Assembly: GCA_959601495.1 (NCBI GenBank)
Contig: CAUGPT010000004.1
Coordinates: 14,844 to 78,843 of the forward strand
Origin: an uncultured Eubacteriales bacterium
GTDB lineage: Bacteria; Bacillota; Clostridia; Oscillospirales; CAG-272
Direction of reading: 5' to 3'
DNA: 64,000 nt
Part shown: positions 3,717 to 19,154 of the stretch, in pieces
How positions within the stretch are numbered: the stretch's first letter is position 1
Layout: every line of letters starts with the position of its first letter
Program-made: the position numbers and the translations under genes
Notes under the pieces: generated by a model
What the model was told of the DNA's origin: nothing
The model's input: the letters and a program-made list of their open reading frames with translations, nothing else
Databases searched by the model: none

Positions 3717-5360
3717 ATGGATCGGGACTATTACGGCGAAAGAAAACCGAATACGCAAAGCGGTGCGCAGCACCGCCGCGATCCGCAGAGCGGCGCTCAG
3801 GTCTCGCGAAATGATCAGGCGGGGCGCTACGGGCAGACTGCTTTTGGCAGGGATGCACGCGGCGGCAGTGGCTCGGCACAGGGCAGCGGCACCGCGGACA
3901 CACGGCGAAACGGCTATCAAAGCGGCAGAACCCCATCGGGCTCGGCGCAGAATGTCGGCAGAACGCAGGGAGCGTCTTCCGGAAGCGGCCCGGCACAGCC
4001 TATAGGCGGCGGGTCGGGCGGCACACCTCAGAGCCGCGCGGCTGACCGTATTTCAAGCGGCAGAGCGCCTGCGAGCACTCACGGGCACACTGCAGGCGGT
4101 ACCGCACACGGCGCACCCGTGAGAGTCCGCAGAGCGGCTGATGTGCAAAAGCGTCCCGGCGCTCTTACGACAAGCGAGCAGCGCGCTCTCGCAAAACGAG
4201 AGAAAAAAGACAGGGAATGGGAAGCGGGCATACAGCGCGTTCGCCACGGAGTGGACCGTCCTCTTGCCGTTATAATCATAATCCTTCTTTGCCTCGGCAC
4301 CGTTATGGTGTTTTCGGCAAGCTATCCCAACGCCATAACAGATAAAGGAGACGCGACATTTTATATCCGCCGCCAGCTGATGTGGCTCGCGGTCGGCGCG
4401 GTCGTCATGATCGCCGCGGCTGCAGTGCCCCATCAGGCATACAAAAAAGCGGCGCCTTCCGTCGCCATTGCCTCTCTTGCGCTTCTGGTGCTTGTACTTA
4501 TCATGGGTACGGCGCGCGGCGTCGCAAGGCGCTGGATATATGTGGGCAGCGTGTCCATTCAGCCCTCCGAGATCGCAAAGCTTGCGCTTATACTGACGCT
4601 TGCCTGGTACATAGACAAACATTTTGAAGAAGTTTCGTCCGGGCGGCTTTCCAAAAAGAAAACGTACCGCCGCAGCGTGCTTGTTCCCGGAGTTATAATG
4701 TTTACGTTCTGCGGTCTGGTGCTTTTGGAAAAGCATCTGTCAGGCACGGTAATACTTGCCGCTATAGGAGTGTGCGTAATATTTCTGAGCGGCGCCAACG
4801 TATGGCATATGGCGCTGACATACGGCATTCCCGCGATCCTTGCGGGCGGTGTGTATCTTCTGACAAACAGCTACGCGCTGCAGCGCATACTCACCCATAC
4901 GGACGAAAACGCCGATAAGCTTAAGGAACTGTGGCAGACGACGCAGGGCCTTTACGCGATCGGCAGCGGCGGACTTCTTGGCGTGGGTCTGGGACATTCC
5001 AATCTGAAATACAACTACGTTTCCGAGGCGCAGAACGACTTTATCTTCACAATCTGGTGCGAGGAAACCGGACTTATAGGCGCAGTTCTGCTCATAGCAC
5101 TGTACGGTCTGTTTGTCTGGCGCGGCATTACCGTTGCAAGGCGCGCCCCCGACACGTTCACGTCCCTTACCGCCTTCGGCATAACCTGTCAGGTGGGCAT
5201 ACAGGCGCTGCTGAACATTCTCGTGGTCACAGACCTTATACCCAATACAGGCATATCCCTGCCGTTCTTTTCGTACGGGGGCTCGTCACTGGTGCTGCTC
5301 ATGTGCGAAATGGGCATACTTCTGTCTGTTTCAAAGCATTCGTTCCAAAAGAATAAATAA
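3717..5360 (+). CDS. ftsW: SEDS-family peptidoglycan glycosyltransferase (FtsW/SpoVE-like) with a ~180-aa low-complexity N-terminal extension
   Basis: The C-terminal ~365 aa is a typical FtsW/RodA/SpoVE polytopic protein (VSEAQNDFIF, SLPFFSYGGSS). The N-terminus is Gly/Ser/Arg/Gln-rich. AAGGAG RBS 9 nt before the ATG. FtsW and SpoVE cannot be told apart by eye. Confidence 0.85.
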   Translation: MDRDYYGERKPNTQSGAQHRRDPQSGAQVSRNDQAGRYGQTAFGRDARGGSGSAQGSGTADTRRNGYQSGRTPSGSAQNVGRTQGASSGSGPAQPIGGGSGGTPQSRAADRISSGRAPASTHGHTAGGTAHGAPVRVRRAADVQKRPGALTTSEQRALAKREKKDREWEAGIQRVRHGVDRPLAVIIIILLCLGTVMVFSASYPNAITDKGDATFYIRRQLMWLAVGAVVMIAAAAVPHQAYKKAAPSVAIASLALLVLVLIMGTARGVARRWIYVGSVSIQPSEIAKLALILTLAWYIDKHFEEVSSGRLSKKKTYRRSVLVPGVIMFTFCGLVLLEKHLSGTVILAAIGVCVIFLSGANVWHMALTYGIPAILAGGVYLLTNSYALQRILTHTDENADKLKELWQTTQGLYAIGSGGLLGVGLGHSNLKYNYVSEAQNDFIFTIWCEETGLIGAVLLIALYGLFVWRGITVARRAPDTFTSLTAFGITCQVGIQALLNILVVTDLIPNTGISLPFFSYGGSSLVLLMCEMGILLSVSKHSFQKNK

Positions 5361-12280: not shown

Positions 12281-13462
12281 TTAATGCAAGCCGTATTCTT
12301 CTGCAATATCGGCATACTGCCCGCCGAGATCCTCTCCGGTGATATACCCTGACAGCACACAGCCGAACATGACCGCGCTGCGCTTTGCCTCGGTGAGGGT
12401 GTTTGCGCACGTGCCGAACTCGATAAGCAGCGCCCCGGGAGATGTGTCCTGATAGAAGGAAGCGCACCTGAGATCGATAGGACGCATCAGCGTGTTGTCG
12501 GCGTTCCATAGGCGGGACTGCAGCGAGAGCGCAAAGCTGAGGTTCTCTCTCCAGTTTTTATGCGCGCTGCCGCCGCTGTCCGTGCCGCATACTATCATTA
12601 GCTGGGCGGCTTCGTCACCGCCGATATCGGTAACGCTGCGCACATAGCCCGCGTCGTCGTTGCCTATGCAGTCGCGGTGAACGTCGAAAACGTATTTTAC
12701 GGACGGATAGCGGGACAAAACGTCCCGCACGGCGAGAGTGCTGCTGTCGTATGCTCCGCTCCAGGACTTTTCATCAAACATTTCTTCGATATGCATTGTG
12801 ACGACGCCGCATTTTTCAAGAGTTTCGGCAAGTATTTTTCCAACGGCGACGGTGTTTTTCTCCGTATCGCGGGAGCGAAAAGAGTTGCCGGCACAGTCGG
12901 CGTACGCCTCCGTGCCGTGGGTGTGATATATGAGCACGAGCGGCGCATCGCTTTGCTCGGCGCCTGTCGGGGAGCTTGCGGCGGGAACGGAGCTCATAAG
13001 CGCTTCTATGTTTGTCTCGTATTCCGTTTCGTTCGATATCGCAAGTCCGCCTGCGGCGCGGGCGGAAAGGTCTTCGTTCATGACCTTGAGGCTCGGCGGG
13101 ATGCTGTCGGTATCCCCATTGCCGTCCTCGGACGCTTCTTCGTCCCCATCAAGAACAACGGGATCGGGATCATCCGCTTTTTCTTCTATGACCACATCGG
13201 GGAAAATAAGCGATACGATGCGGTTCTGCCAGCCGTTTTTCAGATAGGAGAACAGCTCCGCGGCGGCAGCCGCGTGCACAAGTATGCCGACGGCACAGAG
13301 TATAAGACATGAAGCCGAGGCCGCAGCCTTTGCTATCCGCAGCCCCCTTGCGCCTCTGTCCGACACCGTCGGAGCGCCGTACACGCTTTCTGGCGGCGCT
13401 TCGAGCCGCTCCGCATCTGTCGGAGCGTCAAGCGTTCTTTCGCTGTAAGTTTTCATATCCAT
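12281..13462 (-). CDS. spoIIP: Stage II sporulation protein P (SpoIIP amidase/endopeptidase)
   Basis: N-terminal TM, an acidic linker, then the SpoIIP core (LIYHTHGTEAY ... FDVHRD ... LIEFGT). ATG 13462 follows GGGAGG by 9 nt; the longest ORF starts at 13516. Confidence 0.85.
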   Translation of the reverse strand: MDMKTYSERTLDAPTDAERLEAPPESVYGAPTVSDRGARGLRIAKAAASASCLILCAVGILVHAAAAAELFSYLKNGWQNRIVSLIFPDVVIEEKADDPDPVVLDGDEEASEDGNGDTDSIPPSLKVMNEDLSARAAGGLAISNETEYETNIEALMSSVPAASSPTGAEQSDAPLVLIYHTHGTEAYADCAGNSFRSRDTEKNTVAVGKILAETLEKCGVVTMHIEEMFDEKSWSGAYDSSTLAVRDVLSRYPSVKYVFDVHRDCIGNDDAGYVRSVTDIGGDEAAQLMIVCGTDSGGSAHKNWRENLSFALSLQSRLWNADNTLMRPIDLRCASFYQDTSPGALLIEFGTCANTLTEAKRSAVMFGCVLSGYITGEDLGGQYADIAEEYGLH

Positions 13463-13785
13463 AATGTGTAACCTCCCGCGTTTTTTCTTTTTTCGTCCGC
13501 AGCGCAAAGCCGTCACTCACTAAAGCGTGCGTCTTGTCCGCGCGGCATAGATGTGCACGCCTGTATTTTCTGCGCTGTTCAAGTATATTGGCACTACGTG
13601 CGCAATATTCCGCATGGCAGCGTGCATTTCGGCTTTCGGCTCGACGGCTCGGGCAGGATTTGCATAGGGACATATACTGCCGCGCGGTATGTGACGGCGA
13701 AGAGAGCGACAGCCGCCGAGAGCTGCGGGAGAGCGGCACCGAAAAGCTTTACAAAAAGGTATGCGGCGCCCATCGACGGCGCGGC

Positions 13786-13813
13786 AAAAAATAAAAACGC
13801 TGCGGACAGCGTT
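13786..13813 (-). terminator. Intrinsic terminator ending candidate unit 2
   Basis: Minus strand AACGCUG-UCCG-CAGCGUU followed by UUUAUUUUUU. Confidence 0.65.
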
Positions 13814-13901
13814 CTTGATGAGAATTTTTCATAACGAAGAAGAGGATGCCTTCGGAGGTAAACGGTTTTTAAAACCGCATCGACCGGAAGCACCCTCATC
13901 C
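13786..13901 (-). ncRNA. Candidate small non-coding transcription unit 2 (family unknown)
   Basis: Bounded by a TTGATA-17-TATACT promoter (13936-13908) and an intrinsic terminator (13813-13786). Can form a 14-bp stem (GAGGGUGCUUCCGG with CCGAAGGCAUCCUC) that encloses a CGGUUU/AAACCG hairpin. No SD-led ORF. Confidence 0.3.
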
Positions 13902-13907
13902 GAAATC

Positions 13908-13936
13908 AGTATATGTCACAAGTTCTCGCCTATCAA
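13908..13936 (-). promoter_or_regulatory. Sigma-A-type promoter of candidate unit 2
   Basis: On the minus strand: TTGATA (13936-13931), 17-nt spacer, TATACT (13913-13908). Confidence 0.45.
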
Positions 13937-14020
13937 GGAATACGGAAAAGCATTGCGGGGAAAATAGATCAATTCCGAACTTTCGAACGGTGACGGAATG
14001 CCGAAGGTGTTATAAGCATA

Positions 14021-14045
14021 TAAAAAGCAGCCGAAGCCTCGGCTG
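14021..14045 (-). terminator. Intrinsic terminator ending candidate unit 1
   Basis: Minus strand CAGCCGA-GGCU-UCGGCUG followed by CUUUUUAU. Confidence 0.65.
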
Positions 14046-14311
14046 ACGCCAATGTGGAACAAAGCCACAAGGACGTATCAACAATGGGGTCTTCGACTAC
14101 TGCCTGTACTGTATCAGATTTGTATTCGTTTGTCAAGCGCTTCGACAACGGTTTTGCCGCGCGCAAACTGTGAATGAAGGACGGGCTCAGTGCTGAAAGA
14201 CTGCGGCGCCGCGCAGGTGGCAATGCGGAAATGCTTTGCATAAAAGAAGACACGGGTCATCAAGAGTATCGCCCTGATTTAACAGAGTCAACAGGTCTCC
14301 GTCGCCGTGCC
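14021..14311 (-). ncRNA. Candidate non-coding transcription unit 1, ~290 nt (family unknown)
   Basis: Bounded by a TTGACA-17-TATATT promoter with a TGn extension (14346-14318) and an intrinsic terminator (14045-14021). Only short ORFs (34 and 48 aa), with no or poor RBS and rare codons. Several local hairpins. Confidence 0.35.
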
Positions 14312-14317
14312 GCCTAT

Positions 14318-14346
14318 AATATATCACAAATGATTCCGTTTGTCAA
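14318..14346 (-). promoter_or_regulatory. Sigma-A-type promoter of candidate unit 1
   Basis: On the minus strand: TTGACA (14346-14341), 17-nt spacer ending TGa, TATATT (14323-14318). Starts 15 nt after the gpr stop. The -35 lies inside a CCGTT-GACA-AACGG palindrome. Confidence 0.5.
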
Positions 14347-14361
14347 CGGCAGGAAAGTGCC

Positions 14362-15288
14362 TTACAGCCCCTCCGCCATATATGCTCGGTTTATTGCCGA
14401 GGCTATAAGCGCCGCCACCTCGTCGCATATGATATCCCCGTCCTTCGGGGATACAAAATAGCTGCGCTCCTTTTCAAGAGAGGCGCGCATTTCCTCGCCG
14501 CACTCGCATCCCGCGCGCTCAAGCGCGTCCCAGACAAGCGTGGCGCAGTCCACAACGGTGGGCACGCCGATAGCTATCACGGGGCAGCCGATGCTCTCTC
14601 TGTTGACGGCGCTGCGGCGGTTTCCTATCCCGCTGCCGGGCTCGATGCCCGTGTCCGACAGCTGTATGGTGGAGGCAAGCCGCTTTGTGGAGCGCGCAGC
14701 AAGGGCGTCTATGGCAATGACCACATCCGGCTTTACATAGTCCGCCGCACCCTTGATCATCGCTCCCGCCTCTATCCCCGTCTGCCCCATAACGCCGGGA
14801 TGCACTGCGGAAATGCTGGAGCAGCCGATGCTGTCAAGAAGTCCCGACTCCATGACGTGACTTGTAACGGCGACTTTGTCCGCGGCGCGGGGACCGAGGG
14901 CGTCAGCCGTTATAAAACGGTTGCCCAGCCCCGCCACAAGCACTTTCGTGGCGCTTGAAACGGGCGCGCCGCACAGCTTTTGCGTAAATTCGCGAAGGAG
15001 GACAGACAGCGCCTCGGTTATGTTTTCCGCGTCATTTGCGTCGAGGTATTTCATAAGCGGACAGTACAGGGTAACATAGCTTCCGCGCTTGCGGCCGGTC
15101 TCGATCTCGCCCTCTTTATTCAGCACTTCAAGGCGTGACACGGGCACGGAGCATATTTCGCCCTCCTCGCTTACCGCCCCGCGGTATGGCTTGTTCAGCG
15201 CCCCCACGCTTTCGCAGGCAAGGTCGGTCCTTGGAAAAGCCGCGCTTTCTGTGACGTTTTCCGTCGGTATTTGTGAATTTTTTAACAT
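14362..15288 (-). CDS. gpr: Germination protease GPR (spore SASP endopeptidase)
   Basis: Aligns by eye to B. subtilis GPR: RTDLACE, VAGLGN..TADALGP, HPGVMGQTGIE, IAIDALAARS, SDTGIEPGSGIGN, VIAIGVPTVVD. ATG 15288 gives MLKNSQ... Confidence 0.9.
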   Translation of the reverse strand: MLKNSQIPTENVTESAAFPRTDLACESVGALNKPYRGAVSEEGEICSVPVSRLEVLNKEGEIETGRKRGSYVTLYCPLMKYLDANDAENITEALSVLLREFTQKLCGAPVSSATKVLVAGLGNRFITADALGPRAADKVAVTSHVMESGLLDSIGCSSISAVHPGVMGQTGIEAGAMIKGAADYVKPDVVIAIDALAARSTKRLASTIQLSDTGIEPGSGIGNRRSAVNRESIGCPVIAIGVPTVVDCATLVWDALERAGCECGEEMRASLEKERSYFVSPKDGDIICDEVAALIASAINRAYMAEGL

Positions 15289-15587
15289 AATCGTTGCCTT
15301 TCCCGAAAAATATATTATAATAATAATATAATTTGCCGCATAAGCGCCGTCTATACCGCACAAAGCCCGAAAGACGGTATCCGCCGATGATATCAGCGCG
15401 GTTTTTGCGGGTTTTTTGCGCGCATTGCCGCCGCGCCGCGGCGCACTTTGACAAAGGCGCTGCTTTGTCGGGAGGGCGCGACGCGCGCCGCAGGCCGAAA
15501 TGCCCTCGTTATATGTAGATTTTTACCAAATTGCCGAATTTTTATTGTGCAAATAAATGAAACTGTGCCGTTTTTCCGCTTTACAGA

Positions 15588-19013: not shown

Positions 19014-19154
19014 TTATAAGGTATCACCGGAGAGATCCGTTTGATATATATATATGCCCGAATAGCTTAAACAGAGCGTTGTTTTTTCAAAGGTAACGGT
19101 GCAAATCCGTTTTGGGGCAAAAAATTCATTCCCAAATTCAGAGAGAGGTAAACC

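Follow-up and report, generated by a model that had tools for sequence, protein, structure and literature searches.

A strain-variable array of candidate antisense-type hairpin RNA genes between gpr and spoIIP in an uncultured human-gut bacterium

Mobile elements are known to carry cis-antisense RNAs, such as RNA-OUT of IS10, CopA of plasmid R1 and RNA I of ColE1, and type I antitoxin RNAs such as RatA and SR4 overlap the 3' end of their target. Small RNA (sRNA) genes also occur in sibling clusters, including LhrC1-5 of Listeria, Qrr1-5 of Vibrio and the streptococcal csRNAs, whose members have a shared seed, a common regulator site and conservation across species. A third relevant group is the 'polyvalent proteins' of phages and conjugative elements, in which PBECR domains occur, a predicted RNase domain class that includes the MuF-C domain of the phage Mu MuF protein (Iyer et al. 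2017, PMC5512222). Here we analyzed a 64,000-nucleotide (nt) stretch of DNA from an uncultured Eubacteriales bacterium (contig CAUGPT010000004.1, positions 14,844 to 78,843; hereafter the window), in which the spacer between gpr and spoIIP contains three predicted hairpin RNA genes, designated units A, B and C. A preliminary description of this spacer had proposed two promoter-to-terminator units as candidate new noncoding RNAs. We found the units to be noncoding, absent from Rfam and folded into hairpins with compensatory changes, as that proposal would have it; they are not two in number, nor are they a fixed feature of the gpr-spoIIP gap.

Both genes lie on the minus strand, with the end of gpr at 14362 and the start of spoIIP at 13461. 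A consensus scan of this strand of the spacer identified three sigma-70-type promoters, each with 17 nt between the hexamers. The promoter of unit A (14346-14318, TTGACA-17-TATATT, 11/12) has an upstream TG and was kept in every conspecific contig with unit A, that of unit B (14136-14108, TTGACA-17-TACAGT, 10/12) also has an upstream TG, and that of unit C (13936-13908, TTGATA-17-TATACT, 10/12) reads TTGACA at the -35 hexamer in most other strains. The A and B promoters form a 35-nt direct repeat with 74% identity. Two terminator-like hairpins were also observed on this strand (14045-14028 and 13816-13793). The promoter signals were above chance, with 10 promoter-like sites in a 4-kb scan versus 2.7 +/- 1.9 in shuffles; a 430-nt stretch of one strand contains three sites of at least 10/12, and the whole window, with both strands counted, has 36. 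The 12/12 sites inspected in the window lie upstream of ordinary genes, so the promoter consensus is meaningful in this genome. Both hairpins and the first and last promoters had been noted in the preliminary description and are real, while the promoter at 14136-14108 had been overlooked, as had the hairpin and UUCUUUUAU that end the first RNA at ~14240. Because the middle promoter was missed, units A and B were merged into a single unit of ~290 nt, which folded as one 304-nt piece is unremarkable (z = -0.5).

The three units share one plan: a near-consensus promoter, a gap of ~7 nt past the -10 box, and then an RNA of ~65-85 nt with paired ends around one or more inner hairpins, followed by a U-run. 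The predicted unit A RNA (~14311-14240, minus strand, ~72 nt, dG -23.3) has a 7-bp closing stem (14311-14305 with 14255-14249) around a three-helix hairpin and ends in UUCUUUUAU. Strain variants in its stems change G.U to A-U or G-C, and its fold is 7 kcal/mol better on the sense than on the antisense strand. The unit B RNA (~14101-14018, minus strand, ~84 nt, fold z -4.7, covariance-model score 108 bits) has an 11-bp closing stem (14101-14091 with 14036-14026), an inner hairpin with the loop CUUUGUU and U5 at the 3' end; the hairpin at 14045-14028 is a competing local terminator hairpin. The unit C RNA hairpin (~13901-13838, minus strand, ~64 nt, fold z -5.5) consists of an interrupted stem of 10 + 3 bp around a 7-bp hairpin (GCGGUUU/AAACCGU) and has the tail UCUUCUUCGUUAU, which in strain L037 is a clean UUCUUCUUUUU. 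The long stem enclosing a second hairpin that had been suggested for this last unit does fold well (z = -5.1 to -5.5), while the terminator assigned to it (13816-13786) belongs instead to a spoIIP-proximal segment common to all strains. The GUCGAAG/GACGGAG 'repeats' noted earlier sit at the 5' end of B and of A. The closing stem of B has this motif as its 5' arm, and in the minimum-energy fold of A it is not used in this way.

The array varied greatly within the species and was missing from its relatives. The only relative among GTDB representative genomes, a Ca. Avispirillum sp. (56% Gpr identity), has a gpr-spoIIP gap of ~50 nt, and contigs with Gpr at 64-69% identity have the same gene neighbourhood with a gap of 80-100 nt. 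With gaps of 50-100 nt in all of these (L001-L009), the array is no conserved feature of the gpr-spoIIP locus. No Gpr protein with 69% to 95% identity was found in a collection of 5.8 billion proteins, which indicates that the lineage is isolated and makes cross-genus covariation impossible. A conspecific set of 32 contigs with Gpr at least 95% identical was obtained from human-gut samples, including Hadza samples. Although the flanking genes of these contigs are 97-99% identical, spacer length varies from 750 to 1767 nt, with 1-5 units per strain. We distinguished at least eight unit types (A, X, B, D, C, u1, u2 and T6), all with the shared plan and an exact 17-nt promoter spacer, and at least nine architectures among 33 sequences: A-B-C (the window), A-X-B-C, A-X-B'-X..., A-X-X-B-C, A-X-X-B*-C, A-B-D-C, A-D-C, remnant-T6-A-X-D-C and remnant-u1-u2-T6-fragment. 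The unit B promoter precedes a B body or, in other strains, a D body, the X body is found behind two different promoter spacers, and L013 has 1.4 kb of other DNA in place of the A-B-C block. Judged from these sequences, promoters and bodies reassort, and units are gained and lost between strains. The X and B flanks are ~67% identical, and a covariance model cross-detects X and T6 at ~14 bits. Unit bodies otherwise align at only ~26-35% outside the promoters. When seven types are compared, identity is 100% in the -35 hexamer, 82% in the -10 hexamer and 26-35% in flanking positions; this comparison is partly circular, as the units were found by promoter scanning. By the same sequence comparisons the array is not native to the sporulation locus, which is an insertion hot spot specific to this human-gut species.

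Substitutions between unit bodies preserved the predicted pairing. We aligned eight distinct B, B* and D bodies and used as controls the same alignment with the 3' partners slid by 1-3 columns. Within the alignment 92% of cells were paired (32-48% in the slid controls), and 10 of 25 pairs had compensatory double changes (0-3 in the controls); the observed values were reached by at most 1 of 500 shuffles. Double changes were also found in type X (U.G to G-C) and type T6 (U-A to C-G), and the strain variants of unit C were all structure-neutral (C-G to U.G, U.G to C-G, and a C.A mismatch to C-G). In B' the inner hairpin UGUGG/CCACA is swapped for CGGAA/UUCCG, which still forms a hairpin, and the inner loop CUUUGUU is conserved in both B and B*. 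In six of the eight types folding is 5-11 kcal/mol better for the promoter strand than for its complement, owing to G.U pairs; this favours an RNA on the promoter strand over a DNA palindrome.

A link to mobile elements came from the opposite strand. The DNA that replaces units A, B and C in L013 encodes a MuF_C domain on this strand (Pfam PF18819, E=4.8e-9). A HMMER search with this module gave 911 representatives, in many of which the module lies deep inside proteins of 2000-4100 amino acids. The hidden Markov model (HMM) of the family matched the sister strains L013 (E=1e-112) and L036 (E=2e-18), and fragments of opposite-strand polyvalent-protein genes were present in L013, L036, L039 and L040. 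The T6 unit (L013 5254-5360; L036 3770-3860; L050 861-755, minus strand; L051 3977-3870, minus strand) runs exactly antisense to KKRTRxWFQACGIQVPLGxTKFGFIRS, a motif at the end of the MuF-C module, and overlaps the 3' boundary of this predicted RNase (PBECR/MuF-C) module in convergent orientation. A putative opposite-strand target gene that overlaps the RNA is thus found for T6 in L013, L050 and L051. The latter two sequences are from other organisms (64-66% amino-acid identity) and have the module intact apart from a frameshift in L051. Their antisense strand keeps the T6 promoter (TTGACA-17-TAYACT with an upstream TG), the hairpin and a U7 run, while the promoter spacer differs freely between the two. 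At identical amino acids, synonymous codon differences amount to 8-25% in the T6 region versus 55-76% in the adjacent domain, a suppression that indicates nucleotide-level constraint on the T6 region. The linker that follows GFIRSI(S)Q varies across 90 representative proteins, with the exception of V/S (83 of 90) followed by N/K (86 of 90) at a fixed distance. In the protein alignment this island coincides with the expected antisense -35 hexamer of T6, which is consistent with selection on an antisense promoter.

Linker-like sequence was also seen opposite the X/B promoters of the array. The opposite-strand frame of the X/B promoters and inter-unit DNA reads GLTDDSSATFDNSISNLYALVKRFGNGFAARGADFALAGGDGTPK and aligns to a linker of another polyvalent protein, P0185, GLVPDTGSEISISNLYDLVKQFDKDFTPAKSVNPALLNEDGTPK (BLASTP E=2e-7 for the L016 frame and E=2e-4 for the frame of the unit B promoter in the window). 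An inter-unit hairpin, GCGCGCGGCAAAACCGUUGUCGAAGCGC (14164-14137, minus strand), lies directly upstream of the unit B -35 hexamer, and its opposite-strand frame, KRFDNGFAAR, resembles a linker of a mobile-element polyvalent protein. We also considered the unit A promoter as a decayed 'NDISKVRTFNA' segment of the MuF_C gene; a tblastn alignment of L036 extends there and the family HMM stops short of it, and this candidate was dropped as unproven.

Several other features of the mobile-element sequences were recorded. In L013, 3.5 tandem copies of a 53-nt repeat lie inside the opposite-strand remnant (4522-4707), of which L036 has one copy, and an 18-nt duplication at the gpr stop codon, TGTAAGGCACTTYCCTGT (4422-4458), looks like an insertion junction. 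The MuF-C-family gene of L051 is frameshifted at an A7 run directly before the T6 hairpin (3865-3880), where A8 would restore KKRTLNWFQACG..., which may reflect a sequencing error, a pseudogene or slippage. Four related IMG/VR contigs (L043-L046) share a 19-mer, GGTTCCCCCTAAAGGGACT, with T6 in unrelated flanks, which we judged to be chance or a very short shared motif.

Taken together, these observations suggest that the A, B and C units are small hairpin RNA genes of the antisense-control type, driven by sigma-A and self-terminating, and descended from units that lay antisense in a polyvalent-protein gene inserted between gpr and spoIIP. We give this reading a probability of about one half. 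A strong vegetative (sigma-A type) promoter would drive each unit independently, and the base of the closing stem with the U-run would act as the unit's own terminator, releasing a free, long, imperfect hairpin RNA shaped like the classical antisense control RNAs. Most likely the array was seeded by a mobile element with a giant polyvalent-protein gene on the opposite strand. Such genes appear to contain embedded antisense promoter-hairpin-terminator units, of which T6 is the clear example. A, B and C would share their origin with T6, and hence descend from a mobile element. The coding sequence would then have decayed or been deleted, and the antisense RNA units kept, duplicated, diversified and reshuffled. 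Such RNAs may act in trans by base pairing with mobile-element transcripts.

A number of points weigh against this reading. Transcription of the units is predicted from consensus matches alone, the fold of unit A is not significantly better than shuffles (z -1.5), and the unit C promoter is weaker (CTAACA at -35, 9/12) in strains with type D. The sequences used for covariation come from one species and its paralogous units and so represent few independent events, and terminator hairpins alone would likewise covary. The family HMM detected nothing in window-type spacers (E>8 for A, B and C). The P0185-type linker is found in 1 of 147 proteins, and its alignment is short and partly overlaps the promoter hexamers. 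Finally, searches of phage, plasmid, viral and metagenome collections turned up no complementary target for the units.

Database searches gave the same picture of a narrowly distributed feature. The preliminary description had recognized no RNase P, tmRNA, SRP, 6S or T-box motif, and this was borne out, with no match to any Rfam family, riboswitches and known sRNAs included, at E<=10 on the unit strand of 12500-15500, none at E<=5 in L012 and L013, and no gathering-level match across the window except a tRNA-like match elsewhere. No further unit copies were found in the window by BLAST, by a scan for promoters with a closing hairpin, or by covariance model. The arrays had no blastn match to phages and plasmids, and the MuF_C piece had one weak tblastn match to an E. 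coli phage and none to plasmids. The X/B 3' motif pattern was absent from the viral (IMG/VR) and metagenome (JGI) collections; a looser form had three metagenome matches without unit structure, which we read as chance. An 18-mer of T6 had four viral matches with unrelated flanks, and no viral contig had the core pattern of T6, X, C or A. Within the reach of these tools and of the collections searched, units of types A, B, C, X and D are confined to one locus of one species. Several known element classes were considered and rejected for the units: integron attC sites, miniature inverted-repeat transposable elements (MITEs) and repetitive extragenic palindromic (REP) elements (no shared core and no other copies), a single-stranded DNA promoter of the Frpo type (the promoter here lies outside the hairpin), and type III antitoxin repeats (with neither a short tandem repeat nor a toxin present). 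A retron noncoding RNA was likewise set aside, with no reverse-transcriptase gene noted among the nearby open reading frames (ORFs) and called genes, for which no dedicated search was made.

The main rival to the antisense-RNA reading is that the spacer holds inert debris, left by a mobile element that inserted between gpr and spoIIP and decayed, with the promoter and hairpin signals being leftovers or by-products of coding sequence and the variability reflecting neutral deletion and duplication at a hot spot. The confinement to one species, the extensive insertions, deletions and rearrangements, and the gene fragments all fit this explanation, as does the reduction of the array to A-D-C in some strains and its entire replacement in L013; in addition, conserved coding motifs such as S-I-S...V-K can yield promoter-like hexamers on the antisense strand. 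We nevertheless consider debris unlikely, since types with flanks at ~30% identity all retain TTGACA, the 17-nt spacer, the hairpin and the U-run, compensatory change preserves the hairpins, the RNA units are intact where coding frames have decayed, and T6 is under nucleotide-level constraint inside intact genes of other organisms. A still more doubtful explanation is that A, B and C are chromosomal sibling sRNAs that act in trans by pairing through exposed loops with host genes, possibly those of sporulation or the envelope. Tandem units that each have their own promoter and terminator would suit such RNAs, as would the relatedness of the paralogues (the X/B flanks and the cross-detection of X and T6), the conserved CUUUGUU loop of B and B*, and the single-stranded CAU-containing or CCUCC stretches in several bodies. 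However, there is no conservation beyond the species, unit content differs between conspecific strains, which is unusual for core regulators, neither a target nor a shared upstream motif for regulator binding was found, and the units are associated with mobile-element fragments.

The remaining two explanations concern spoIIP and small proteins, and both are effectively excluded. According to BLAST of the window against L013 and comparisons of the spacers, strain-variable DNA ends on the right at 13826. From there to spoIIP the DNA is common to all strain types (360 nt, including the terminator and the 320 nt before spoIIP). The intrinsic terminator of this segment (13816-13786, minus strand) has a 10-bp stem and a U-run and in L013 lies beside unrelated DNA. 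Further downstream we found a sigma-E-like sequence (13610-13582, minus strand; GAATATT, 14 nt, AATATACT) that is probably spoIIP's own promoter. Neither box varies between strains, against 4-5 substitutions in the intervening 14 nt, and we take the boxes to fit the consensus for sigma-E of B. subtilis. It had also been suggested that spoIIP has a long leader with attenuators in tandem, where transcription from upstream is gated at each terminator, and the units do lie upstream of spoIIP on the same strand. This proposal fails on the variable unit number (1-5 depending on strain, with other units instead in L013), on the short gap of relatives, and on the conserved segment that spoIIP has to itself, where the strong terminator and the sigma-E-like promoter separate the array from the gene; moreover, the unit promoters are of vegetative type, and spoIIP is a sporulation-sigma gene in B. 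subtilis. Small proteins fare no better. ORFs of 34, 48 and 101 amino acids exist mechanically, and gene callers sometimes place opposite-strand ORFs of 76-187 amino acids in the spacer. The earlier judgement that the spacer has no credible ORF was upheld: the ORFs have no Pfam matches, lack ribosome-binding sites and cross terminators. Every strain substitution of unit A is non-synonymous in the 34-amino-acid frame. The 101-amino-acid ORF (13594-13899), which had been suggested as a leaderless membrane protein, crosses a terminator and has a different N-terminus in other strains, and a deletion of 130 nt of the otherwise shared segment (13761-13632) destroys it in the commonest strain type (L014 and others). 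Opposite units A, B and C of the window there is no conserved ORF and no family match, and the opposite-strand X/B frames were rejected as real proteins, as they matched only spurious ORFs of the same species.

Some observations were made outside the spacer. Two conspecific contigs have internal gpr deletions that truncate the protease, L013 at ~4101 (window positions 14797-14687 missing, ~110 nt) and L011 at ~4404-4421 (14818-14598 missing, ~200-220 nt); these may be a real loss of spore-germination function or an assembly artefact. A tRNA-like element of 64 nt (19056-19119, plus strand; 39.6 bits with the Rfam tRNA model, not called by ARAGORN) lies between sigma-factor-like and zinc-ribbon genes and was also seen in sister strain L012 (111-174, minus strand). 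At 15294-15410 (plus strand) a promoter-like site (TTGCCT-16-TATAAT) is followed by a structured stretch of ~85 nt and a U-run, ~300 nt upstream of an SBP_bac_5 transporter gene, and possibly represents a regulatory leader.

If the units are transcribed, they would constitute a group of small RNAs not described before, in a human-gut spore-former that has not been cultured, and an unusual case of antisense RNA genes that outlived their parent mobile-element gene and then diversified as an array. The T6 side finding may matter more: it suggests that the early effector genes of phages and conjugative elements are subject to a layer of RNA control that has gone unrecognised. For annotation, the spacer is to be placed outside sporulation control, and ORFs called there are to be treated as spurious. 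A more speculative extension, which we regard as improbable, is that the array is a chromosomal RNA-based exclusion locus, with antisense RNA genes that were taken over from polyvalent, anti-defence early-effector genes of phages or conjugative elements and then kept, multiplied and swapped between strains, so as to silence matching incoming genes in trans. Were this so, it would be heritable, sequence-specific immunity by promoter-driven hairpin RNAs rather than CRISPR, and giant polyvalent-protein genes would commonly carry T6-like antisense units at module boundaries.

Compared with known systems, the units resemble ordinary intrinsic terminators or REP and MITE hairpins in being intergenic hairpins with a U-run and variable copy number. 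They differ in that the hairpin spans 60-80 nt with several helices and sits at a fixed ~7 nt after a near-consensus promoter; they also have no other copies in the window, and the bodies of the different units are not one element repeated. The arrangement of tandem small RNA genes with their own promoters and intrinsic terminators, and one architecture among paralogues, is shared with the sibling sRNA clusters. Here, however, the bodies differ completely between types, no shared seed was seen and no shared upstream operator is evident, and the content varies within the species while the array is missing in related genera. The opposite-strand fragments of L013, L036, L039 and L040 belong to the polyvalent-protein family with MuF-C/PBECR modules, for which the text of Iyer et al. 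(2017, PMC5512222) does not mention 'antisense' or 'small RNA', and the window strain has no coding remnant recognisable by the family HMM. A likeness is also seen to the cis-antisense control RNAs, which have the same features predicted here from sequence: a length of 65-90 nt, a strong constitutive promoter, one long imperfect hairpin and an own terminator. T6 further resembles a type I antitoxin RNA in its convergent overlap with the 3' boundary of a predicted RNase module. Unlike these RNAs, A, B and C have no opposite-strand gene, so that any target would lie elsewhere, and the putative target would be a giant polyvalent-protein module rather than a small toxin peptide or a replication or transposition gene. 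A further difference is their organization, as the units described here are arrayed in tandem and reshuffled between strains.

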